Source: Wolbachia endosymbiont of Dirofilaria (Dirofilaria) immitis (GTDB taxonomy: Bacteria; Pseudomonadota; Alphaproteobacteria; Rickettsiales; Anaplasmataceae). Taken from it: a stretch of 32,000 bases of DNA. The translations under genes were made by a program, and so were the position numbers. The stretch spans positions 240,001-272,000 of the forward strand of contig NZ_CP046578.1 in assembly GCF_013365455.1 (NCBI RefSeq), in the 5' to 3' direction. Shown in pieces: positions 12,532-20,605 of this stretch (positions are counted from its first letter, which is position 1; the number at the start of each line of letters is the position of its first letter). Below the pieces are notes generated by a model, which worked only from the letters and a program-made list of their open reading frames with translations, did no database searches and had not been told where the DNA came from.

Positions 12532-13737
12532 TTAAGCTAATAATGGACCATCAGGCATATTACTAATTACATTGATTTGATTTAATATCTTGTTAGTAGG
12601 GTAAAAATAGTTTTTTATGAACTCTTTATATATAGCTGTCAGTTTATATATATCGTCTACTGACGCACATTCATTTACCTGGTGTGTAGTTTTATTAATC
12701 ATACCAAATTCAATCACTGGACACACATTTTTGATAAACGCAGCATCAGACGTACCGCCGCTTGTGCTCATTACAGCATTAATATTGGTGACTTTATTTA
12801 TTGCGTCAAGCATAATATCAGTGTTCCTATCAGGCATGGAAAGGAAAGCTCCCCTACTAATGTGAATAGAGAGTTTATAATCGTTAGTCACGCTAGAGCA
12901 TATTTCATCGATTAATTTAAATAAAGTGTTAGGTGTTTGTATATCGTTATATCGAATATTGAAATTTGCAACTATTACATCGGGTATTATATTATTATTG
13001 TTGTTTCCGACATCAATAGTAGTAACCTCGCAGTTTGAAGGCTGAAAGTGTTTATTACCATTGTCAAAAGTAGTATTTCTTATTCTATTTAATATTGATA
13101 TCATCTTATATATTGGATTATCAGCTAAATCTGGGTAAGCAACATGTCCTTGTTTTCCATAACAAATTAATTTGAATATTGCAGATCCTCTTCTGCCTAT
13201 TTTTATGGTATCGCCTAGTTTTTCACTACTAGTTGGTTCGGCAATTACACAATAGTCTATCTTCTTTTGCTTACTTTCCATCCATTCTAAAACTGCTTTT
13301 GTTCCATATTCTTCCATACTTTCTTCAGCACTGGTAATCAATGTACTTATCGAACCATTAAACTGAAATTTTTCTACAACAAAATTTACCATAGCAGCAA
13401 TAAATGCAGCTACTCCGCTTTTCATATCAGCTGCTCCTCTTCCATACAATATTCCGCCTCTGACTTTTGGATTAAATGGATCAGATATCCAATCTTTTAA
13501 TTGACCTGGTGGTACAACATCAATATGTCCAGCAAAACATAAATTTGGTACTCCATTTATATATTTTGCATAGAGACTTTTAACTTTAGCTTTGTTATTA
13601 CCGAACTCTAAAATCTTACACTTAAAGCCACTTTTCTTGAGAATTGCTGCTATATACTCTATTGCTCCATCGTCTTTTGGTGTTATACTCTTGAAAGAAA
13701 TCAACTTCTTAGTTAGCTCTACAGGGTCAATCTTCAT
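12532..13737 (-). CDS. dapE: succinyl-diaminopimelate desuccinylase
   Basis: M20 peptidase layout: LISFKSITPKDDGA, FAGHIDVVPPG, YGRGAADMKSG, EESMEEYG, and a dimerisation domain. The length (401 aa) is slightly long for DapE. Confidence 0.85.
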   Translation of the reverse strand: MKIDPVELTKKLISFKSITPKDDGAIEYIAAILKKSGFKCKILEFGNNKAKVKSLYAKYINGVPNLCFAGHIDVVPPGQLKDWISDPFNPKVRGGILYGRGAADMKSGVAAFIAAMVNFVVEKFQFNGSISTLITSAEESMEEYGTKAVLEWMESKQKKIDYCVIAEPTSSEKLGDTIKIGRRGSAIFKLICYGKQGHVAYPDLADNPIYKMISILNRIRNTTFDNGNKHFQPSNCEVTTIDVGNNNNNIIPDVIVANFNIRYNDIQTPNTLFKLIDEICSSVTNDYKLSIHISRGAFLSMPDRNTDIMLDAINKVTNINAVMSTSGGTSDAAFIKNVCPVIEFGMINKTTHQVNECASVDDIYKLTAIYKEFIKNYFYPTNKILNQINVISNMPDGPLLA

Positions 13738-13755
13738 GTCAATCTTGAAATACTG

Positions 13756-15204
13756 ATGTTGCTATATTGTAAACATTCTATGCATTATTTAAAACAAATA
13801 TTACACCAAGCTAAACAAACTCTTATAAGGGAGGTAATAGTAGATCGTCATCTTGTTGATAGTATACATGAAATATGTACACAATATGGAAATGACATTT
13901 TTCTGGTTGCAGATGAAAATACAGCAGAATTTTTGAGCAAAAACACATTTAATAAAATTTCTCACTTAATTATTCCTAGTAGTATTATTAGGCCTCTTGC
14001 AAAACCATATGTCATTTTAAATGCTTCTGAAATTTTGTCATCTCAGTATTCTGACATTGGGATCCAGAAAAAAGGAGTATGGATCCCAATGTCAAGCACT
14101 AGAATGATACCAAGCGGAGAAATGATACTAAACAGAGCTGCTTCTCTTGAAACTGTCAACTTAGTTAGAGATAGGGCAAAAGATAGTGATTTAATAGTTG
14201 CACTTGGTAGTGGCACTATTAACGATATCTGTAAGTATGCAAGTTACCTAGAGGGCAAAAACTACATATCCTTTCCAACAGCTGCTTCTATGAATGGATA
14301 TACCTCTGCAAACGCTTCTATCTTAGTAGACGGATATAAAAGGTCTTTCGTAGCACACCTTCCCAAGGCAATATATATTGATACCAATATAATTGCTAAT
14401 GCACCACTTCGCCTGACATTAAGCGGATTTGCAGATTTCATTTGTCGTTCAACAGTGCAAGCTGATTGGCTATTATCTCATCTATTGCTTGGCACAGAAT
14501 ATAATGAATTACCTTTCACACTTGTTCGTGATCTAGAGGAAATTTTACTCAGAGAGTATCTTGCGCTCTCAGAAAGAAGCAAAAAAGTGGTCTTATTACT
14601 TATGGAAGCCTTGCTGATTTCAGGACTTGGGATGGTAATATCGAAAGGCAGCTACTCTGCAAGTCAAGGAGAACATATAATAGCTCATACAATGGAGATG
14701 GTAACAAAAGATTATTTTTCTGCATTACATGGTGAAAAAATTGCTGTTGCGATGATCACTATGGCTAATTTGCAGGAAAAGATATTGTCAATACAAAATC
14801 CCATCGTTAAACCAATAAGCTGCTTCAGTGTTATTCCAATGTCAAACGCTAAAATTCAAAAAGTGAATCAGTGTTATACTGCTTGGATGACAGAGGGCTT
14901 AACAGGGTGCTTTGATGGTACTGAATTTATAAAAATCCTAAAGCAAAAGCAAATTTTGCAGCAGAAGATTAAAGAGATCCTTTATAAGGAATGGAATAAT
15001 ATTTCTAACTTAATTAAGCAAAATTTGTTACCTGCGAAGCGCCTGCAAAAAATGTTTGAAGATTTATCAATTCCACATTTACCAGAACACCTTGGTTGGA
15101 ACAAAGAGCAGTATTGCAAAGTGGTTAGCTTTGCATTTACAGCAAGGGATAGATTCACCTTTCTTGATCTAGCTCACTGTATAGGAGAAAGTAAAGTGTT
15201 GTAG
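13756..15204 (+). CDS. glycerol-1-phosphate dehydrogenase-like / iron-containing alcohol dehydrogenase family protein (DHQS-like superfamily)
   Basis: Motifs LGSGTINDICKYA, FPTAASMNGYTSANAS, AIYIDTNIIANAPLRLTLSGFADF, QADWLLSH, SQGEHIIAH and LHGEKIAV follow the EgsA/AraM/GldA layout. At 482 aa the ORF is longer than typical members and carries two repeat-derived segments. An alternative ATG lies at 13780. Confidence 0.6.
   Translation: MLLYCKHSMHYLKQILHQAKQTLIREVIVDRHLVDSIHEICTQYGNDIFLVADENTAEFLSKNTFNKISHLIIPSSIIRPLAKPYVILNASEILSSQYSDIGIQKKGVWIPMSSTRMIPSGEMILNRAASLETVNLVRDRAKDSDLIVALGSGTINDICKYASYLEGKNYISFPTAASMNGYTSANASILVDGYKRSFVAHLPKAIYIDTNIIANAPLRLTLSGFADFICRSTVQADWLLSHLLLGTEYNELPFTLVRDLEEILLREYLALSERSKKVVLLLMEALLISGLGMVISKGSYSASQGEHIIAHTMEMVTKDYFSALHGEKIAVAMITMANLQEKILSIQNPIVKPISCFSVIPMSNAKIQKVNQCYTAWMTEGLTGCFDGTEFIKILKQKQILQQKIKEILYKEWNNISNLIKQNLLPAKRLQKMFEDLSIPHLPEHLGWNKEQYCKVVSFAFTARDRFTFLDLAHCIGESKVL
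14037..14111. repeat. palindromic repeat element inserted in-frame in a CDS (RPE-like)
   Basis: The perfect 15-bp arms TGACATTGGGATCCA (14053-14067) and TGGATCCCAATGTCA (14081-14095) are separated by a 13-nt loop. The arms extend imperfectly to about 31 nt each. The total is 75 nt, or 25 codons, with the frame preserved. Confidence 0.7.
14825..14893. repeat. second, degenerate copy of the same repeat family inside the same CDS
   Basis: TCCAATGTCAAACGCTAAAATTCAA matches the right arm of element 1 (CCCAATGTCAAGCACTAGAATGATA) at 18 of 25 positions and encodes VIPMSNAKI (versus WIPMSSTRMI). The 10-mer TCAGTGTTAT is repeated at 14825 and 14868, and the stretch ends in TTGGATGACA. Confidence 0.45.
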
Positions 15205-15288
15205 CTAAAGATAATTTAAGAAATTGTTGATGTTTTTATTTCCTAGTAATTGCTCTATATTTGCTTAGGTAAAAGTTGATATAACTCA

Positions 15289-16178
15289 CTATAACGGACT
15301 TTGCTTGTTGTAATTTTTATGCTTTCGGGTAACAGTGCAATACTTGACATCAATAGACTTTTTTGTCGAGTGGGTGAACTTGATATCCTCTATTATGTTA
15401 TTAGTAGGTTTAATAAATTTACTACTATTCTTAAATAGATAATTATTCCTACTACAGCGTATAGTTTTAGAAGAAAATTGGAAGCTTAAAGTGCTTTTCT
15501 TTTTGTTATTAAGCGAAATTGCTAGTGTTAAAATCAGGACATTTTCAATGCTTCAATTACCACAATATCCAGCAATTGACTAGATATAATTTGATTTCTT
15601 TGAGGGAGAAAGAATATTAAAGTTTTAGCTATAGCAAACGGAAAGCTCAGTAATCCTTCTATATGGGTCAAAGTTTTCTTTTGGGTATATATTATATTAA
15701 TTCTTTTGCTGCAGCAACAATGATTAGGTAATTTCTATATATTATACAATATTTGCTGCAATGTTTATTCTCTTGTAAATCCGGAGACAACGATGAAACC
15801 GGCTTTGATCAAATCAAATACCAGCTTACTGGCAGGATCTTCCTTATTTACTGAAGAGTTAAGCTTATTGATTATTATAATCATCTCATGACTTAATGAT
15901 GACATACAGCTAAGTGTAGCTGTACAGAGGAGGTAATCTTATATGCTTCTTTTAAAGTGCTGGATAACCTGAAATGACATACAGGTATGATTTTAGCTTC
16001 GGTTTTCTTTGCACTATTGGTTCTTTTCATGTATCTTGAACACTATATAACTTTTTGTTGAGTTCTTTGTCTACAACTCACACGCTCTCTTAGTCATGGA
16101 AGGCTTAGTTAGCCTAAAGCTTTTAGCTAAACTCAACTATGTCTCTAGTTCCTTATTATTTAATTTACTTGTCTTCAT
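15289..16178 (-). pseudogene. dprA: eroded DNA processing protein A gene (dprA/smf)
   Basis: Minus-strand fragments in DprA order across frameshifts and stops. HEMIIIINKLNSS...ASKLVFDLIKAGFIVVSGFTR corresponds to iaIVGsR...la..L...G..vVSGlArGID. RINIIYTQKK corresponds to GIDiiYP.eN. FLPQRNQIISSQLLDIVVIEALKMS corresponds to FP.RNRIISGLS.gvlVVEA..kSG. LILTLAISL...SRNNYLFKNSSKFIKPTNNIIEDI corresponds to SLITA..Al...S.G.N.LIk.GA.lv....DI. Confidence 0.65.
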
Positions 16179-16682: not shown

Positions 16683-17101
16683 TATCATTCATTGAGGAAA
16701 AGAAAAGCTTCTCTTAGTGTCTTATGCTGGTTATTTTGTTTGCATTTAACAGCATGTAATTTAGCTAATTTACTTAGAAATAAGTTAATCTAAATAGTAA
16801 CATAATAGTTTTATTACTGTTTAATTATTAATAGATAATGTATTTAAAATAGCCATATTAGCGCGGGACATGAGTTACAGCAAACCGTGTAAAAACTACT
16901 AAAGGTGCTATAGTGTATTTAATTGACTAAGTTATATTTTTAGTCTATTACTCATTGTTTTATTTATATTATTAGTATTAGGGGAGAGGTGAACCTCCTT
17001 TACTGGTATTTTTAATCATGTCTTTCCTAATGTTGATATAGCTATTGAAAGTTACTTATAAGCAAGTGGTAAGTATATAATAGTAGGGTAGTAAGTAAGA
17101 A

Positions 17102-17680
17102 ATGAGGAAGAAACATCTAATAGATTTGTAAAAGGGAATGGGTTAGAATAAAAGAATATTTCAGAGTTCAGTGGTATAGGAAAAGAAAGTAAGTCATCAA
17201 AATATGGAAAAGAAGAATATTAAATTCAATTCTATACATATTACATACAGAATACTTAATAAAGGTACTTATTACACAATTTTCTGTTATGAAAAGCAGT
17301 GAATGAACAATTCAAAAAGTTGAAGAAGCATGGAATCTGTCTATTTAAATTGCAGAAAAATGGGAGTTAAAGGCTATGATGGGAGTGGAAAAGTAAAGGG
17401 TGAGAAAAAAGACATAATAGACTTTGGATGTACAGAAATCATTACCTAAGTTGCTATCAACTAAAAAGTAAGGATCTAAATGTAGCTCAGTAAATGGGTT
17501 ACTAAAAGGGTTTCTATTTATTGAATCAACAGGATAGAAAGCACCAAAGAAACAAAATTTATTTGTAACATTCACTGATGGTTTTATATGCCTTGCTGTA
17601 AATGTGATTGTGGTAGAAAGGAATTTCCCACAATTTTACTGATTGGTGAATGATATCTAGGAGAATACTTTTAAACATCA
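17102..17680 (+). mobile_element. IS5-family transposase relic (frameshifted, stop-riddled)
   Basis: Plus-strand fragments: KREWVRIKEYF (D.EW..Ik..lP), RRILNSILYILHTEY (R..LNaILYvLrTG), YYTIFCYEK + NEQFKKLKKHGI (tvy.RF.rW.k.G), and KGYDGSGKVKGEKKDII (GYDagKKvKGRKRHi.vD), a characteristic IS5-group block. I identified no terminal inverted repeats. Confidence 0.55.
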
Positions 17681-17683
17681 ATA

Positions 17684-17707
17684 AAAGAACAGGATATCCT
17701 GTTCTTT
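17684..17707 (-). terminator. possible intrinsic terminator hairpin
   Basis: AAAGAACAGG-ATAT-CCTGTTCTTT forms a perfect 10-bp stem with a 4-nt loop. On the minus strand it is followed by TATTGATGTTT, and it sits at the 3' end of the minus-strand relic 17708-18204. Confidence 0.3.
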
Positions 17708-18204
17708 AAGAGAACACCGGTTGCTAATAGTGCCTTTACTGCAAAAGCTTCAATGTTCTGATACTAAATTGTACAACTTTTCATTGTAATATCAGCAAGT
17801 GATCTAAAGTCTTTTTCTGCTCTAGATAACTTTCTATGTTCTCCCTTTAATGTTTTTATTTCTTTAAAAATTTTTGCACGAAGGTAGCGAATTTCTTATT
17901 ATTTACGGTATGACTATAAAGCTCTTATAATGGATCTTCAAAGATATCATTTCGGTTATTACTAGCATAAATATTTACTGCATGTTTATAAAGAAGTTTA
18001 TTAAATCAGGAAGTTGTTCTTTAAAATTGACCATCTACCTAGTTCATTGATGATTGACGAACAATCGCTGATGTAAAATAGTATTTCTTCTCTATTATCT
18101 CTTATCTCTACTTTATTAACGCTTGTTTCACTTTCTAGTAGAAGTCTTGTTATTTTTATATCTAATAATAACTTTACTGCTTCTTTATTCTTATTTTTTC
18201 TCAT
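17708..18204 (-). pseudogene. unidentified small gene relic with in-frame stops
   Basis: One minus-strand frame reads MRKNKNKEAVKLLLDIKITRLLLESETSVNKVEIRDNREEILFYISDCSSIINELGRWSILKNNFLI. A cluster of stops follows, then EIRYLRAKIFKEIKTLKGEHRKLSRAEKDFRSLADITMKSCTI-stop-YQNIEAFAVKALLATGVLLK, ending at the hairpin. I recognised no family. Confidence 0.3.
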
Positions 18205-18417
18205 ATAAATAGTGCTATGAGTTTTAGTATAGCTATCTCTTATATAAAGTTAGTTAACTTCTTTAGTAAAGATTTAATTAGTAGTACACGTGTAGCTTCT
18301 TTTCTCTGCGATCAATTGCGCTATGCAAGAACGTTTATTTCTGATCTGATACTATAACTATTGTGTAACTTGAACCTAAAACTTAGATTGACTTATATTC
18401 TTTTTACTTTATTATAT

Positions 18418-19790
18418 ATGAAAATCTTTCCTTGGCTAATTTTTTATTTCTTCGTAAATTTGGTATGATTAATCTTACTATGGTCAATATATCACTTATC
18501 CTTGCAAATATGTTGATCAACTTTTTGAAATGGGGCTCATTTTTTTGTACTGTATTATTAAGATAAAGCTGTTTAATGATATATGGTAAACCTGAAGAAG
18601 GTTAGGATTTTTGTTTTCGATGCTTATACCTATTACCGTAAAACATAGTTGCCTATAGTTTTGAAAGAGAGTTAGTATCAAGTTATCAATAAACTACTTA
18701 TGAGATAAGTTTTATGGAAAGTAGAGCTAAAACTTGGTCTATTTAGCCGATTGGTGACCAAGTTATTATATTTAGTAAAATACTGATAATCTATACTTTT
18801 ACAAGTGTGAGTTTTAAAAAAAGAGCTTAGACCTACAATTATGTAAGTTGTATTGGCAAGTTTAGCATGTGCTTGAACTTTTGCCATCTCACGATTTTTC
18901 AGTGGTGATTGCAATTGGAGCTCATTTGGTTTTATTTGAACTACTCATTTGAACGTGCCTGTTTTCCTCTTACCTGATTTGAACTGATATTTTCAATTAA
19001 TACAGACAATTTCAAGCCTTCCTATGTTGGTGATTTGAGCGTTTTTTTATAGTTTGTTTGCTAAGGTTATATGTTGGAAAACCTGATTGTATACATAATG
19101 CTATTTTATGTGTTGATGCTTGCATTCATGTTTTTATCTAAACATGTTTTCAGAGAGCTATTTTAAAAGTACTTAATAAAGAGCTTAATTAATAAGAACG
19201 GTAATGTATTCTATACTTGTGGTGCTGGGATTAAGGGGTATCTAGGTAACCTTAACAGTAGGTGCTATTACTTCTGGAGTATTTCTGATCTTTAACATCT
19301 CAAGAGTTTTGGGATTATTGAGCAACTCAGAGTTTTATGTAAGGGAATCAGATGAAGCAATTGCGATTGTTGGTTTGGTCTTGTAATCAGTGCTCCCTAA
19401 TTGCAGGTTGAACCTAAAATTTATCTAGAATGGAAGGTACACAATCTCTTCTCTATTATATAGAGTGTTTCAATTATCATTTTGCTATGTGGCTATTTAA
19501 AAGTTTATATTATATGCTTTTATATGTTGACGTTTGGTCTTCTTGCAGGGCACATGTGCTTGATTTTACTTGTTGGAAGCGAAATTGTGGAATGGTGATA
19601 TAAGCATATTATTGTCTATTATTAACAGATTTGTGTTTAAAATGAGGTAGAGAATTAGAGCGTTAATTCTAGCACTTCTTACAAGTTATCAAATAGTGTT
19701 TTTTGATATTTGGAGTGTTAGCAACTGCTAGTATTTTAAATTATGCTGTAAAAAAGGAATATCGTAAAATAAAGTAGCTGGGTCTAGAGT
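18418..19790 (+). pseudogene. eroded polytopic membrane (transporter-like) gene
   Basis: A chain of hydrophobic, TM-like plus-strand fragments in shifting frames: MKIFPWLIFYFFVNLV, FSVVIAIGAHLVLFELLI, MLENLIVYIMLFYVLMLAFMFLSKHVF, MYSILVVLGLRGI/VTLTVGAITSGVFLIFNISRVLGLL, EAIAIVGLVL and RALILALLTSYQIVFFDIW. Family not identified; boundaries approximate. Confidence 0.35.
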
Positions 19791-19826
19791 TAATTATTAT
19801 TTTATATTTGCATATTGTAATAAATT

Positions 19827-20126
19827 ATGGATTACGTTGTGACAAAAGACATAACAGTAATTAAAGCAACAATAGCTGAAGGTATCAAGAAATTGGATTG
19901 TCAAAAGAAGACTCCACTGCAATAATAGACGATATATTGGATAAAATAAAGATAAGCTTAGCAAAGGAAGGAATAATGAAAATATCATTATTTATTTGGG
20001 GCGTTCTTAGTTAAAAAAAGAAAGACCAGGGAATATACCAAAAACATCAGGAAGAATGGTGATTCAAGCGAGAAATTCGGTTTTTTTAGACCTTCAAAAG
20101 TAATAAAGAAATTAATTAATAAATAA
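19827..20126 (+). pseudogene. HU/IHF-family DNA-binding protein pseudogene
   Basis: MDYVVTKDITVIKATIAEGIKKLDCQKKTPLQ is followed by two stops. Then comes DDILDKIKISLAKEGIMKISLFIWGVLS-stop-KKK. After a frameshift the sequence reads RKTREYTKNIRKNGDSSEKFGFFRPSKVIKKLIN. This follows the HU/IHF pattern (...v..il..i...L.~G..V.i.gFG.F.vkkR.aR.gRNPkTGe.i.i.a...v.FrPsk.lk..in). Confidence 0.65.
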
Positions 20127-20189
20127 GAAAGTTACTCTACATGAAGAGAAGTTGCTAAAGAGCATACTTGAATAATGTATTTAAGGTAC

Positions 20190-20560
20190 TGGGGAAATCA
20201 ATTCTGTCAAGTAAAATCTATAGAGAATGAGGAAAAAGGTTATATAGTTATAAGTGTGTAGGTTATAAAAAATAAAGCATATGTTATATGGTAAAATATG
20301 TATGATAGAAAGAGTGTAAAGAGAATTTGATGATGGTGTAAAAAGTTAATCGCAGTTCGAAGGATTTGTTGCAAGAACTTACCCACAGGGATTATTTGAT
20401 CAGCAAAATAAATAGTAAAGGAAATGGTCAGTAACCATAAGTGTATGGCATGTAAATTGTGTGTGTATAATTAAAAAGGTAATCAAGAAAAGTGGTGAAC
20501 TTATATTTAAAAACGTCTGTGTCGTTAAGTGGTAAAGTAAGAATTTAGTTAATATTTACC
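20190..20560 (+). pseudogene. infC: tentative translation initiation factor IF-3 (infC) relic
   Basis: One plus-strand frame, with in-frame stops, gives three IF-3-like pieces. VKSIENEEKGYIVISV resembles the IF-3 N-domain VRLID..Ge.lGv.s. 42 codons later, WCKKLIAVRRI resembles PVCKimDygKf.Y. 27 codons after that Cys, VKEM sits where the C-domain KEi(R/K) begins. Another frame gives VIKKSGELIFKNV (FLe.GdKVKv). The position upstream of rpmI-rplT fits the conserved infC-rpmI-rplT order. The similarity is weak. Confidence 0.3.
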
Positions 20561-20605
20561 CTTGCGATTAAGAAAAAATCAATACATTCACAATAGATTT
20601 AGTTT

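Follow-up and report, generated by a model that had tools for sequence, protein, structure and literature searches.

A decayed WPE-type palindromic repeat, probably tolerated in frame, in a dehydrogenase gene of the Wolbachia endosymbiont of Dirofilaria immitis

The DNA analysed here (the window) is a stretch of 32,000 nucleotides from the Wolbachia endosymbiont of Dirofilaria immitis (contig NZ_CP046578.1). Its subject is a hairpin-forming palindrome at 14037-14108, which lies within the gene of an AraM/G1PDH-like iron-containing alcohol dehydrogenase. The hairpin is very probably a decayed copy of WPE, a dimer of CGTC-4 REP units, which is tolerated in frame in a surface loop of a conserved and intact dehydrogenase gene. 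The sequence at this place, which we call site 1, is an insertion and is read in frame. Strong purifying selection acts on the core of the host gene (about 0.09 for the ratio of nonsynonymous to synonymous divergence, dN/dS), and the copy itself is decaying. The original prediction, made from the letters of the stretch, had described an RPE-like selfish element. The behaviour it described is matched by the present results, and the precise name is WPE or CGTC-4 REP dimer rather than RPE proper. Its statement that GGGATCC-centred palindromes are dispersed in Wolbachia genomes was also correct.

The palindrome and its repeat family

The palindrome is built on a perfect 15-nucleotide inverted repeat, TGACATTGGGATCCA at 14052-14066 and TGGATCCCAATGTCA at 14080-14094, with a spacer of 13 nucleotides. 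Perfect arms of this length and a spacer of this size had been predicted, and the inverted-repeat search found both, although the predicted arm coordinates (14053-14067 and 14081-14095) were one base too high. The arms do extend imperfectly beyond this core, to 29-30 nucleotides and not to about 31. No other perfect inverted repeat of at least 14 nucleotides occurs in the window, and a first-order Markov simulation gave a chance expectation of 0.01 repeats per window (at least 15 nucleotides, spacer of at most 60 nucleotides). RNA folding of 14037-14108 yielded –30.1 kcal/mol against –13.6 ± 2.7 kcal/mol in shuffled sequences. With z = –6.2, the fold that the original prediction had proposed as a check is far better than that of the shuffles. 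The reading frame is open across the element, and the translation contains the predicted peptide, ...SSQYSDIGIQKKGVWIPMSSTRMIP.... The boundaries of the 75-nucleotide unit that had been proposed were nearly right, but the family unit is 72 nucleotides and the whole insert is 150 nucleotides. The parts of site 1 are the following.

14037-14108, + strand: core element, read as a 72-nucleotide short-form WPE, a tail-to-tail dimer of two CGTC-4-type stem-loop units, matched by a hidden Markov model (HMM).
14052-14066, + strand: left perfect stem arm TGACATTGGGATCCA, ending in a CCA tail.
14067-14079, + strand: A-rich spacer or hairpin loop GAAAAAAGGAGTA, like the spacers in short forms elsewhere.
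14080-14094, + strand: right perfect stem arm TGGATCCCAATGTCA, with two lineage-unique changes that both match the left arm.
About 13990-14139, + strand: site-1 insert block of 150 nucleotides or 50 codons, with boundaries uncertain by about 3-9 nucleotides, from DNA alignment to the empty allele L004.
14010-14035, + strand: putative degenerate half-unit TGTCATTTTAAATGCTTCTGAAATTT, a sub-repeat of the arm head and 5' stem (direct repeat D3, 24-nucleotide spacing).
14103-14137, + strand: 18-nucleotide tandem pair AATGATACCAAGCGGAG / AATGATACTAAACAGAG (repeat D1), a duplicated arm-end module of the ATGAC type.

Protein alignment places the insert block at 13981-14130, and the whole 150 nucleotides fold as one extended imperfect hairpin (z = –3.6). 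The segment 14010-14035 may be a degenerate half-unit, as the D3 repeat suggests, and many family copies elsewhere are flanked by comparable GTCATCCAAGTRC... sub-repeats.

For the search of related copies, an arm consensus, GTCATYCCAGTGCTTGACACTGGRATCCA, was derived from the well-preserved orthologous copies in wCfeJ. The pattern CCAGTGCNNGAYACTGGRATCC was scanned against one genome per bacterial species and was found in at least 120 stretches, a lower bound, nearly all of them from Wolbachia or from metagenome-assembled genomes (MAGs) of Rickettsiales/Alphaproteobacteria. Three apparent matches outside Wolbachia (Hyphomicrobiales, Longimicrobiales, and Pontimonas) are about the number estimated by chance. 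The collected DNA stretches held 146 arm-pattern matches. The copies take either a short form of 71-72 nucleotides, with an A-rich or T-rich spacer of 13-14 nucleotides, or long forms with 60-110 nucleotides between the arms. An HMM built from seven short forms, all of them in other Wolbachia genomes, matched the window at 14037-14107 over positions 1-70 of 71 (nhmmer, E = 1.4e-13), and a single-unit HMM matched the right arm (E = 4e-6). Other copies, which the original prediction had asked to be sought, are therefore numerous, and the element is recognised from end to end by a profile made from other genomes. An ancestral coding sequence with a palindrome formed by chance is hardly credible. 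An open reading frame is all that speaks for it. Against it stand the chance expectation of about 0.01 repeats per window, the lack of the insert in the outgroups, and the match of the profile from other genomes at the E value given above. Carriage by phages was also considered and rejected, the arm pattern being present in only 1 of 2.9 million viral contigs.

The unit consists of a (C/T)GTC head, a 9-bp stem ATCCCAGTG, a CTTGA loop, the stem CACTGGGAT, and a CCA tail. Across the family, the loop has 5-6 nucleotides and the tail is CCA. Pairing within the arms was evaluated on 25 units, namely the family consensus unit, both arms of the window, and 22 copies that do not match the search pattern. 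In this set, pairing within the intra-arm stem reaches 94.7%, with compensatory double changes at 3 of the 9 pairs. The number of double-change cells was 17 against 5.1 in shuffles, and 0 of 500 shuffles reached 17. As each arm forms a stem-loop unit of the CGTC type by itself, the window element is read as a tail-to-tail dimer. Its CCA tails are intact (14064-14066 and 14080-14082), the stems within its arms are partly eroded, and the mirror head has decayed to GATA. The pristine 72-nucleotide form is open in four of six frames, and the window copy is open only in the frame that is used.

The family often lies within genes. In the collected DNA, 68 of 183 arms (37%) are found within stop-free stretches of at least 300 codons, several of them with an architecture like that of the window, for example ...HDTGIQKKDVWIPVSCTGMT... 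in an open reading frame of 1172 codons. Separately, the D-alanine-D-alanine ligase gene (ddl) carries a family copy in several Wolbachia (L003 13794-13822; L026, L053). This gene looks like another recurrently occupied gene, and it is absent from the 32-kb window.

The assignment to WPE was made from scores on the curated NCBIfam protein profile TIGR02697 (WPE_wolbac, cut-off 27.55 bits) together with the shared arms. Long forms with the same arms scored 82.5 and 73.1 bits. The site-1 insert of the orthologue P0020 scored 49.4 bits, which corresponds to a full WPE domain, and the site-1 insert of wCfeJ scored 23.2 bits. The end of the WPE domain, of the WIPVSSTGMT type, is encoded by the right arm. 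The arm consensus and a pristine copy both read VIPVLDTGI in frame 1, and the window reads ...SDIGIQ after a 1-nucleotide insertion in the arm.

WPE was reportedly described by Ogata, Suhre and Claverie in 2005 (Trends Microbiol 13:253). The window element resembles it in genus, in its terminal arms, in being palindromic, in its many dispersed copies, and in its in-frame position in intact housekeeping genes. Also, orthologues of the host gene carry the full WPE domain at site 1 of the window. The difference is that the window copy is a decayed short form with a 13-nucleotide spacer, whereas the domain model covers about 45 nucleotides of conserved spacer. WPE-like in-frame inserts have been noted in addA, addB, and priA, where they were masked (PMC4224334), and WPE copies have been counted in the wUni and wVitA genomes (PMC4898810).

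CGTC-tagged REPs, including the family CGTC-4, were described by Di Nocera et al. in 2013 (PMC3733652). According to that work, RPE-4 of Rickettsia conorii belongs to CGTC-4, the Wolbachia members are mostly head-to-head dimers with a spacing of 1-2 bp, and the wRi CGTC-4 peptide VIPVLDTGI corresponds to residues 151-159 of WRi_011360 (PMC3733652 and its supplement). The window element shares with CGTC-4 the layout of the unit, which runs from a head through a stem and a 5-nucleotide loop to a CCA tail, the formation of dimers and clusters, and the location within genes. The peptide VIPVLDTGI equals the translated arm consensus. The window element differs in that its dimer is tail-to-tail and in that the head is mostly TGTC in the collected copies, where TGTC is the consensus and CGTC a minority.

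RPE-1 to RPE-7, the Rickettsia palindromic elements, are said to have been described by Ogata et al. in 2000 and 2002. They are likewise palindromic repeats that colonise open reading frames in frame at surface positions of proteins, and RPE-4, RPE-6, RPE-7, and WPE have ATGAC-rich arms in common (PMC3767692). They belong to another genus, Rickettsia, and the WPE arms are distinct sequences. The window element is not a member of the RPE families; the likeness lies in behaviour and, for RPE-4, in the type of unit. REP/BIME elements of the GTAG type are mobilised by RAYT transposases. They are similar in their short stem-loop units, dimers, and variable spacers, and probably in forming single-stranded hairpins. 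However, the window element has no GTAG tag, and no RAYT was seen here.

Host gene, insertion site and second copy

13780-15204, + strand: host gene, AraM/G1PDH-like iron-containing alcohol dehydrogenase of 474 residues, an exact match to QKX02147.1 (Wolbachia of Dirofilaria immitis).
14830-14891, + strand: site-2 element, a strongly degraded family copy with a 9-nucleotide internal deletion, aligned to the well-preserved wCfeJ copy at the same site.

Five proteins encoded in the window are identical to proteins of the D. immitis Wolbachia, the genome of which is a contig of 920,122 bp. One of these, QKX02147.1, is named "iron-containing alcohol dehydrogenase" in the databases (474 residues). 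Its start codon is at 13780, and all of the orthologues start with MHYLKQ. The program-made open reading frame from 13756 has 482 residues and starts 8 codons (13756-13779) upstream of the deposited start. Therefore, it is over-extended. The protein matches Pfam Fe-ADH_2 from residue 126 onward only. Its best match in fold and sequence is the Bacillus subtilis G1P dehydrogenase AraM (9h4x), and archaeal G1PDH is also among the best solved relatives. A side observation concerns the databases. The representative of this protein in the 90% protein clustering is a 43-residue 'hypothetical protein' fragment (P0129), and for this reason the host protein was missing from the returns of the homology search.

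The insertion was established by aligning first 27 and later 57 orthologues. Between HLIIP and ASLE, the window has 54 residues, where Ehrlichia, Anaplasma, Neoehrlichia, Mesenet, and every basal Wolbachia-like lineage carry only four (GNSI-like). The outgroups and the basal Wolbachia are empty at both sites, so the stretch is missing from distant orthologues as the original prediction had supposed. The host protein has 474 residues against 399-406 in the uninserted orthologues, an excess of about 71-74 residues, which results from the two inserts together. The protein had indeed been predicted to be longer than typical members, but by 80-100 residues and through a single insert. The size of the insert at site 1 had been underestimated, and the second copy in the same gene had been missed.

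In an AlphaFold2 model (482-residue numbering), site 1 lies between the strand 69-73 and the helix 131-140 that precedes the GSGT loop. The predicted position between an N-terminal strand and this loop agrees with both the alignment and the model. The model confidence (pLDDT) is below 50 at residues 77-126 and 357-383 and above 90 in the flanks, with a mean of 75.8. The insert therefore appears as a low-confidence loop on a well-folded core, which is what the structural check of the original prediction had sought. The alignment behind the model is shallow (27 sequences), so some of the low confidence in the inserts is to be expected. At the position of site 1, AraM has a length difference of 12 residues, and therefore site 1 is a length-variable loop in the enzyme family. 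From the model, the inserts are probably tolerated disordered surface loops.

Divergence was compared pairwise among the window, wCtub, and wCfeJ. The dN/dS of the core (403 codons) is 0.08-0.10, and that of the 50-codon site-1 insert is 0.35-0.67. Therefore, the core is under purifying selection and the insert is weakly constrained.

The second copy lies about 750 nucleotides downstream of the site-1 element in the same gene. It adds about 72 nucleotides relative to the empty alleles (about 14815-14886), after NPIVKP, and is common only to the window, wCtub, wDcau, wCfeJ, and one MAG. The wCfeJ copy at site 2 folds at –45.6 kcal/mol, whereas the window copy no longer folds (z = –0.8). Its remnant at 14833-14850 is the sole other HMM match in the window and is very weak. 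Beyond site 2, no further family copies were found in the 32-kb window by self-BLAST and the two HMMs.

Allele history, decay and the perfect stem

The decay of the 72 nucleotides can be followed by fold energy, which is –59.1 kcal/mol for the pristine copy, –40.3 for wCfeJ, –30.1 for the window, and –6.7 for wCtub (z = +0.3 for wCtub). The outer arms of the window copy have decayed by about seven changes and one indel. In L126 (GCA_902646645.1), the closest relative by DapE with 88% identity, the host gene survives only as a pseudogene (L126 2400-3965). Its lesions include one additional A in the A-run of the spacer of the element and a deletion of the left half of site 2. The homopolymer of the repeat may have helped to inactivate the gene there.

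The alleles at site 1 comprise type I with 48-54 residues (including the window), type II with 23-37 residues, a long form of 71 residues, a 60-residue form, and the empty form. The 18-nucleotide tandem pair is common to the type-I alleles, with the Gerris allele lacking one copy. In a neighbour-joining gene tree built on the core without support values, the crown Wolbachia are a patchwork of these alleles and the basal lineages are empty at both sites. The right junction (...GMTPxxxA|ASLE) and the orientation of the arms are common to all of the filled alleles. Therefore, one ancient insertion followed by deletion, duplication, and conversion is favoured. The P0006 allele (L131 480-685) has a right arm belonging to another subtype (CAGCGTCACGCGCTGGAATGAC) and a 9-nucleotide deletion, which suggests that this arm came from conversion by another family copy.

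The alternative that site 1 is an insertion hot spot, with alleles that arose from several independent insertions at the same codon, is less likely, but it deserves to be taken seriously. Alleles of very different length and spacer content stand at one site, interleaved with empty alleles, the right arm of P0006 is of another subtype, and possible hot spots for RPE and WPE have been raised before (PMC3767692). However, the shared right junction and arm orientation speak for common descent with internal deletion, duplication, and conversion. The scatter could also be produced by strain recombination, and the gene tree from which it is read is the neighbour-joining tree without support values. 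Recombination between Wolbachia strains is a process that could scatter alleles in this way.

On the reading as a decayed WPE, a non-autonomous, hairpin-forming repeat family would have spread through Wolbachia genomes, perhaps by transposition through a single-stranded hairpin intermediate. The element would have inserted itself between two codons of the AraM/G1PDH-like gene, at a surface loop of variable length and in a stop-free frame, and the gene would have stayed intact because of these three circumstances. The extra peptide would be carried as a tolerated, probably disordered, loop. A single insertion in the ancestor of the crown Wolbachia may have been remodelled into many length alleles of the palindrome, and recombination or precise loss would then have produced the scatter of alleles. 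The family may now be inactive in the reduced genome of the D. immitis Wolbachia.

Several points weigh against the reading as a decayed WPE. The sole family match of the window insert is TIGR02697 at 13.5 bits (E = 0.055), which is below the cut-off, and it aligns to the last 10 of the 36 profile positions only. The middle of this domain is absent from short forms. We attribute the low score to the short spacer and the decay and not to membership of a different family. The head of the window copy is TGTC (14036-14039) and not CGTC. The copy count in the D. immitis Wolbachia is limited to the 32-kb window. Filled, differently filled, and empty alleles are scattered across the crown Wolbachia, which could reflect recurrent insertion. 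No convincing target-site duplication was found at the site-1 insert. A weak likeness between the left end of the insert and the downstream target (CTCTTG..AAAC) was considered and rejected (p = 0.036 for the window, 0.47 for wCfeJ, and 0.11 against the empty site). No mobilising enzyme is known for CGTC-type repeats, which have neither a known dedicated transposase nor a known flanking RAYT (PMC3733652). Finally, CGTC-4 elements were stated to be unrelated to WPE (PMC3733652). Contrary to this statement, elements with CGTC-4-type arms (VIPVLDTGI) encode the full WPE domain of TIGR02697, and by their sequences the descriptions of WPE and CGTC-4 appear to overlap.

The perfect stem of the window copy calls for its own explanation. 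From a DNA alignment of eight type-I alleles, the ancestral arms are TGGATTCCAGTGTCA on the right and GACACTGGGATCCA on the left, and they mismatch at one G.T pair only. A change from C to T in the left arm (CACTGG to CATTGG) is common to the window, L126, and wCtub. The right arm TGGATCCCAATGTCA is found in the window only. It has a T-to-C and a G-to-A substitution, which are both unique to it. They fall at the sole two mismatched positions, and each leads to the complementary base, so that the stem becomes perfect. The chance probability of two such arm-matching substitutions was estimated at about 0.001-0.004, and the change from T to C goes against the bias of mutation towards AT. Quasi-palindromes are known to mutate by templated correction. 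This would be the simplest explanation of the perfect stem, which may thus have been restored without selection.

Alternatively, the hairpin could have been co-opted. Selection would then keep the 15-bp stem perfect for a function that it has inside the gene, as RNA or DNA. For example, it might make translation pause between the N-terminal strands and the nucleotide-binding helix, affect the stability of the mRNA, or bind a protein. We consider this improbable. Among the eight type-I alleles, the stem is perfect in the window only, through the two arm-matching substitutions, one of them against the AT bias, and synonymous divergence is 0.42-0.53 in the insert against 0.77-1.0 in the core. Both facts would fit co-option. 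However, the three closest relatives (L126, wDcau, and wCtub) have an eroded stem, even the two in which the gene is intact, and the window copy itself shows decay in its outer arms. These observations disfavour selection for the stem. Moreover, templated correction accounts for the arm-matching changes without selection, and the argument for co-option from these changes comprises two substitutions only. The element has no Rfam match and no terminator-like site. At gathering thresholds, Rfam returned only two tRNAs, which are far from the element. The possibility of an intrinsic terminator was dismissed because the terminator scan found no site in 13700-15300.

Neighbourhood and significance

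Directly downstream of the host gene, on the – strand at 15275-16178, there is a degraded relic of dprA. The DprA of wCfeJ matches it by tblastn with 33% identity over 278 residues, in pieces that lie in different frames. An intact dprA stands at the position of the relic in wCfeJ and wTis. Further downstream, neither strand of the region 16700-20600 (about 3.9 kb) has an open reading frame of at least 80 residues. This is unusual in a compact genome, and the region may be a graveyard of pseudogenes. Ddl, FtsQ, Lon, and ClpX, which are encoded downstream in wCfeJ, gave no match in the window.

The finding is ordinary for Wolbachia, as it is a further decaying copy of a known repeat family. Nevertheless, it has practical consequences. 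The approximately 70 extra residues of the dehydrogenase are repeat-derived and not a new domain, and they should be masked in alignments, phylogenies, and selection scans. Site 1 is hypervariable, with about ten length alleles across Wolbachia, and could serve as a strain marker. The shared arms link the literatures on WPE and on CGTC-4 REPs, which have been treated as unrelated. On a small scale, the arm-matching substitutions illustrate how the halves of a natural quasi-palindrome evolve in concert. If the stem was restored by selection and not by templated repair, a selfish repeat would here have been co-opted to serve as a functional structure in a coding sequence. Taken together, the site-1 alleles form a natural series for the remodelling and loss of palindromes inside genes.

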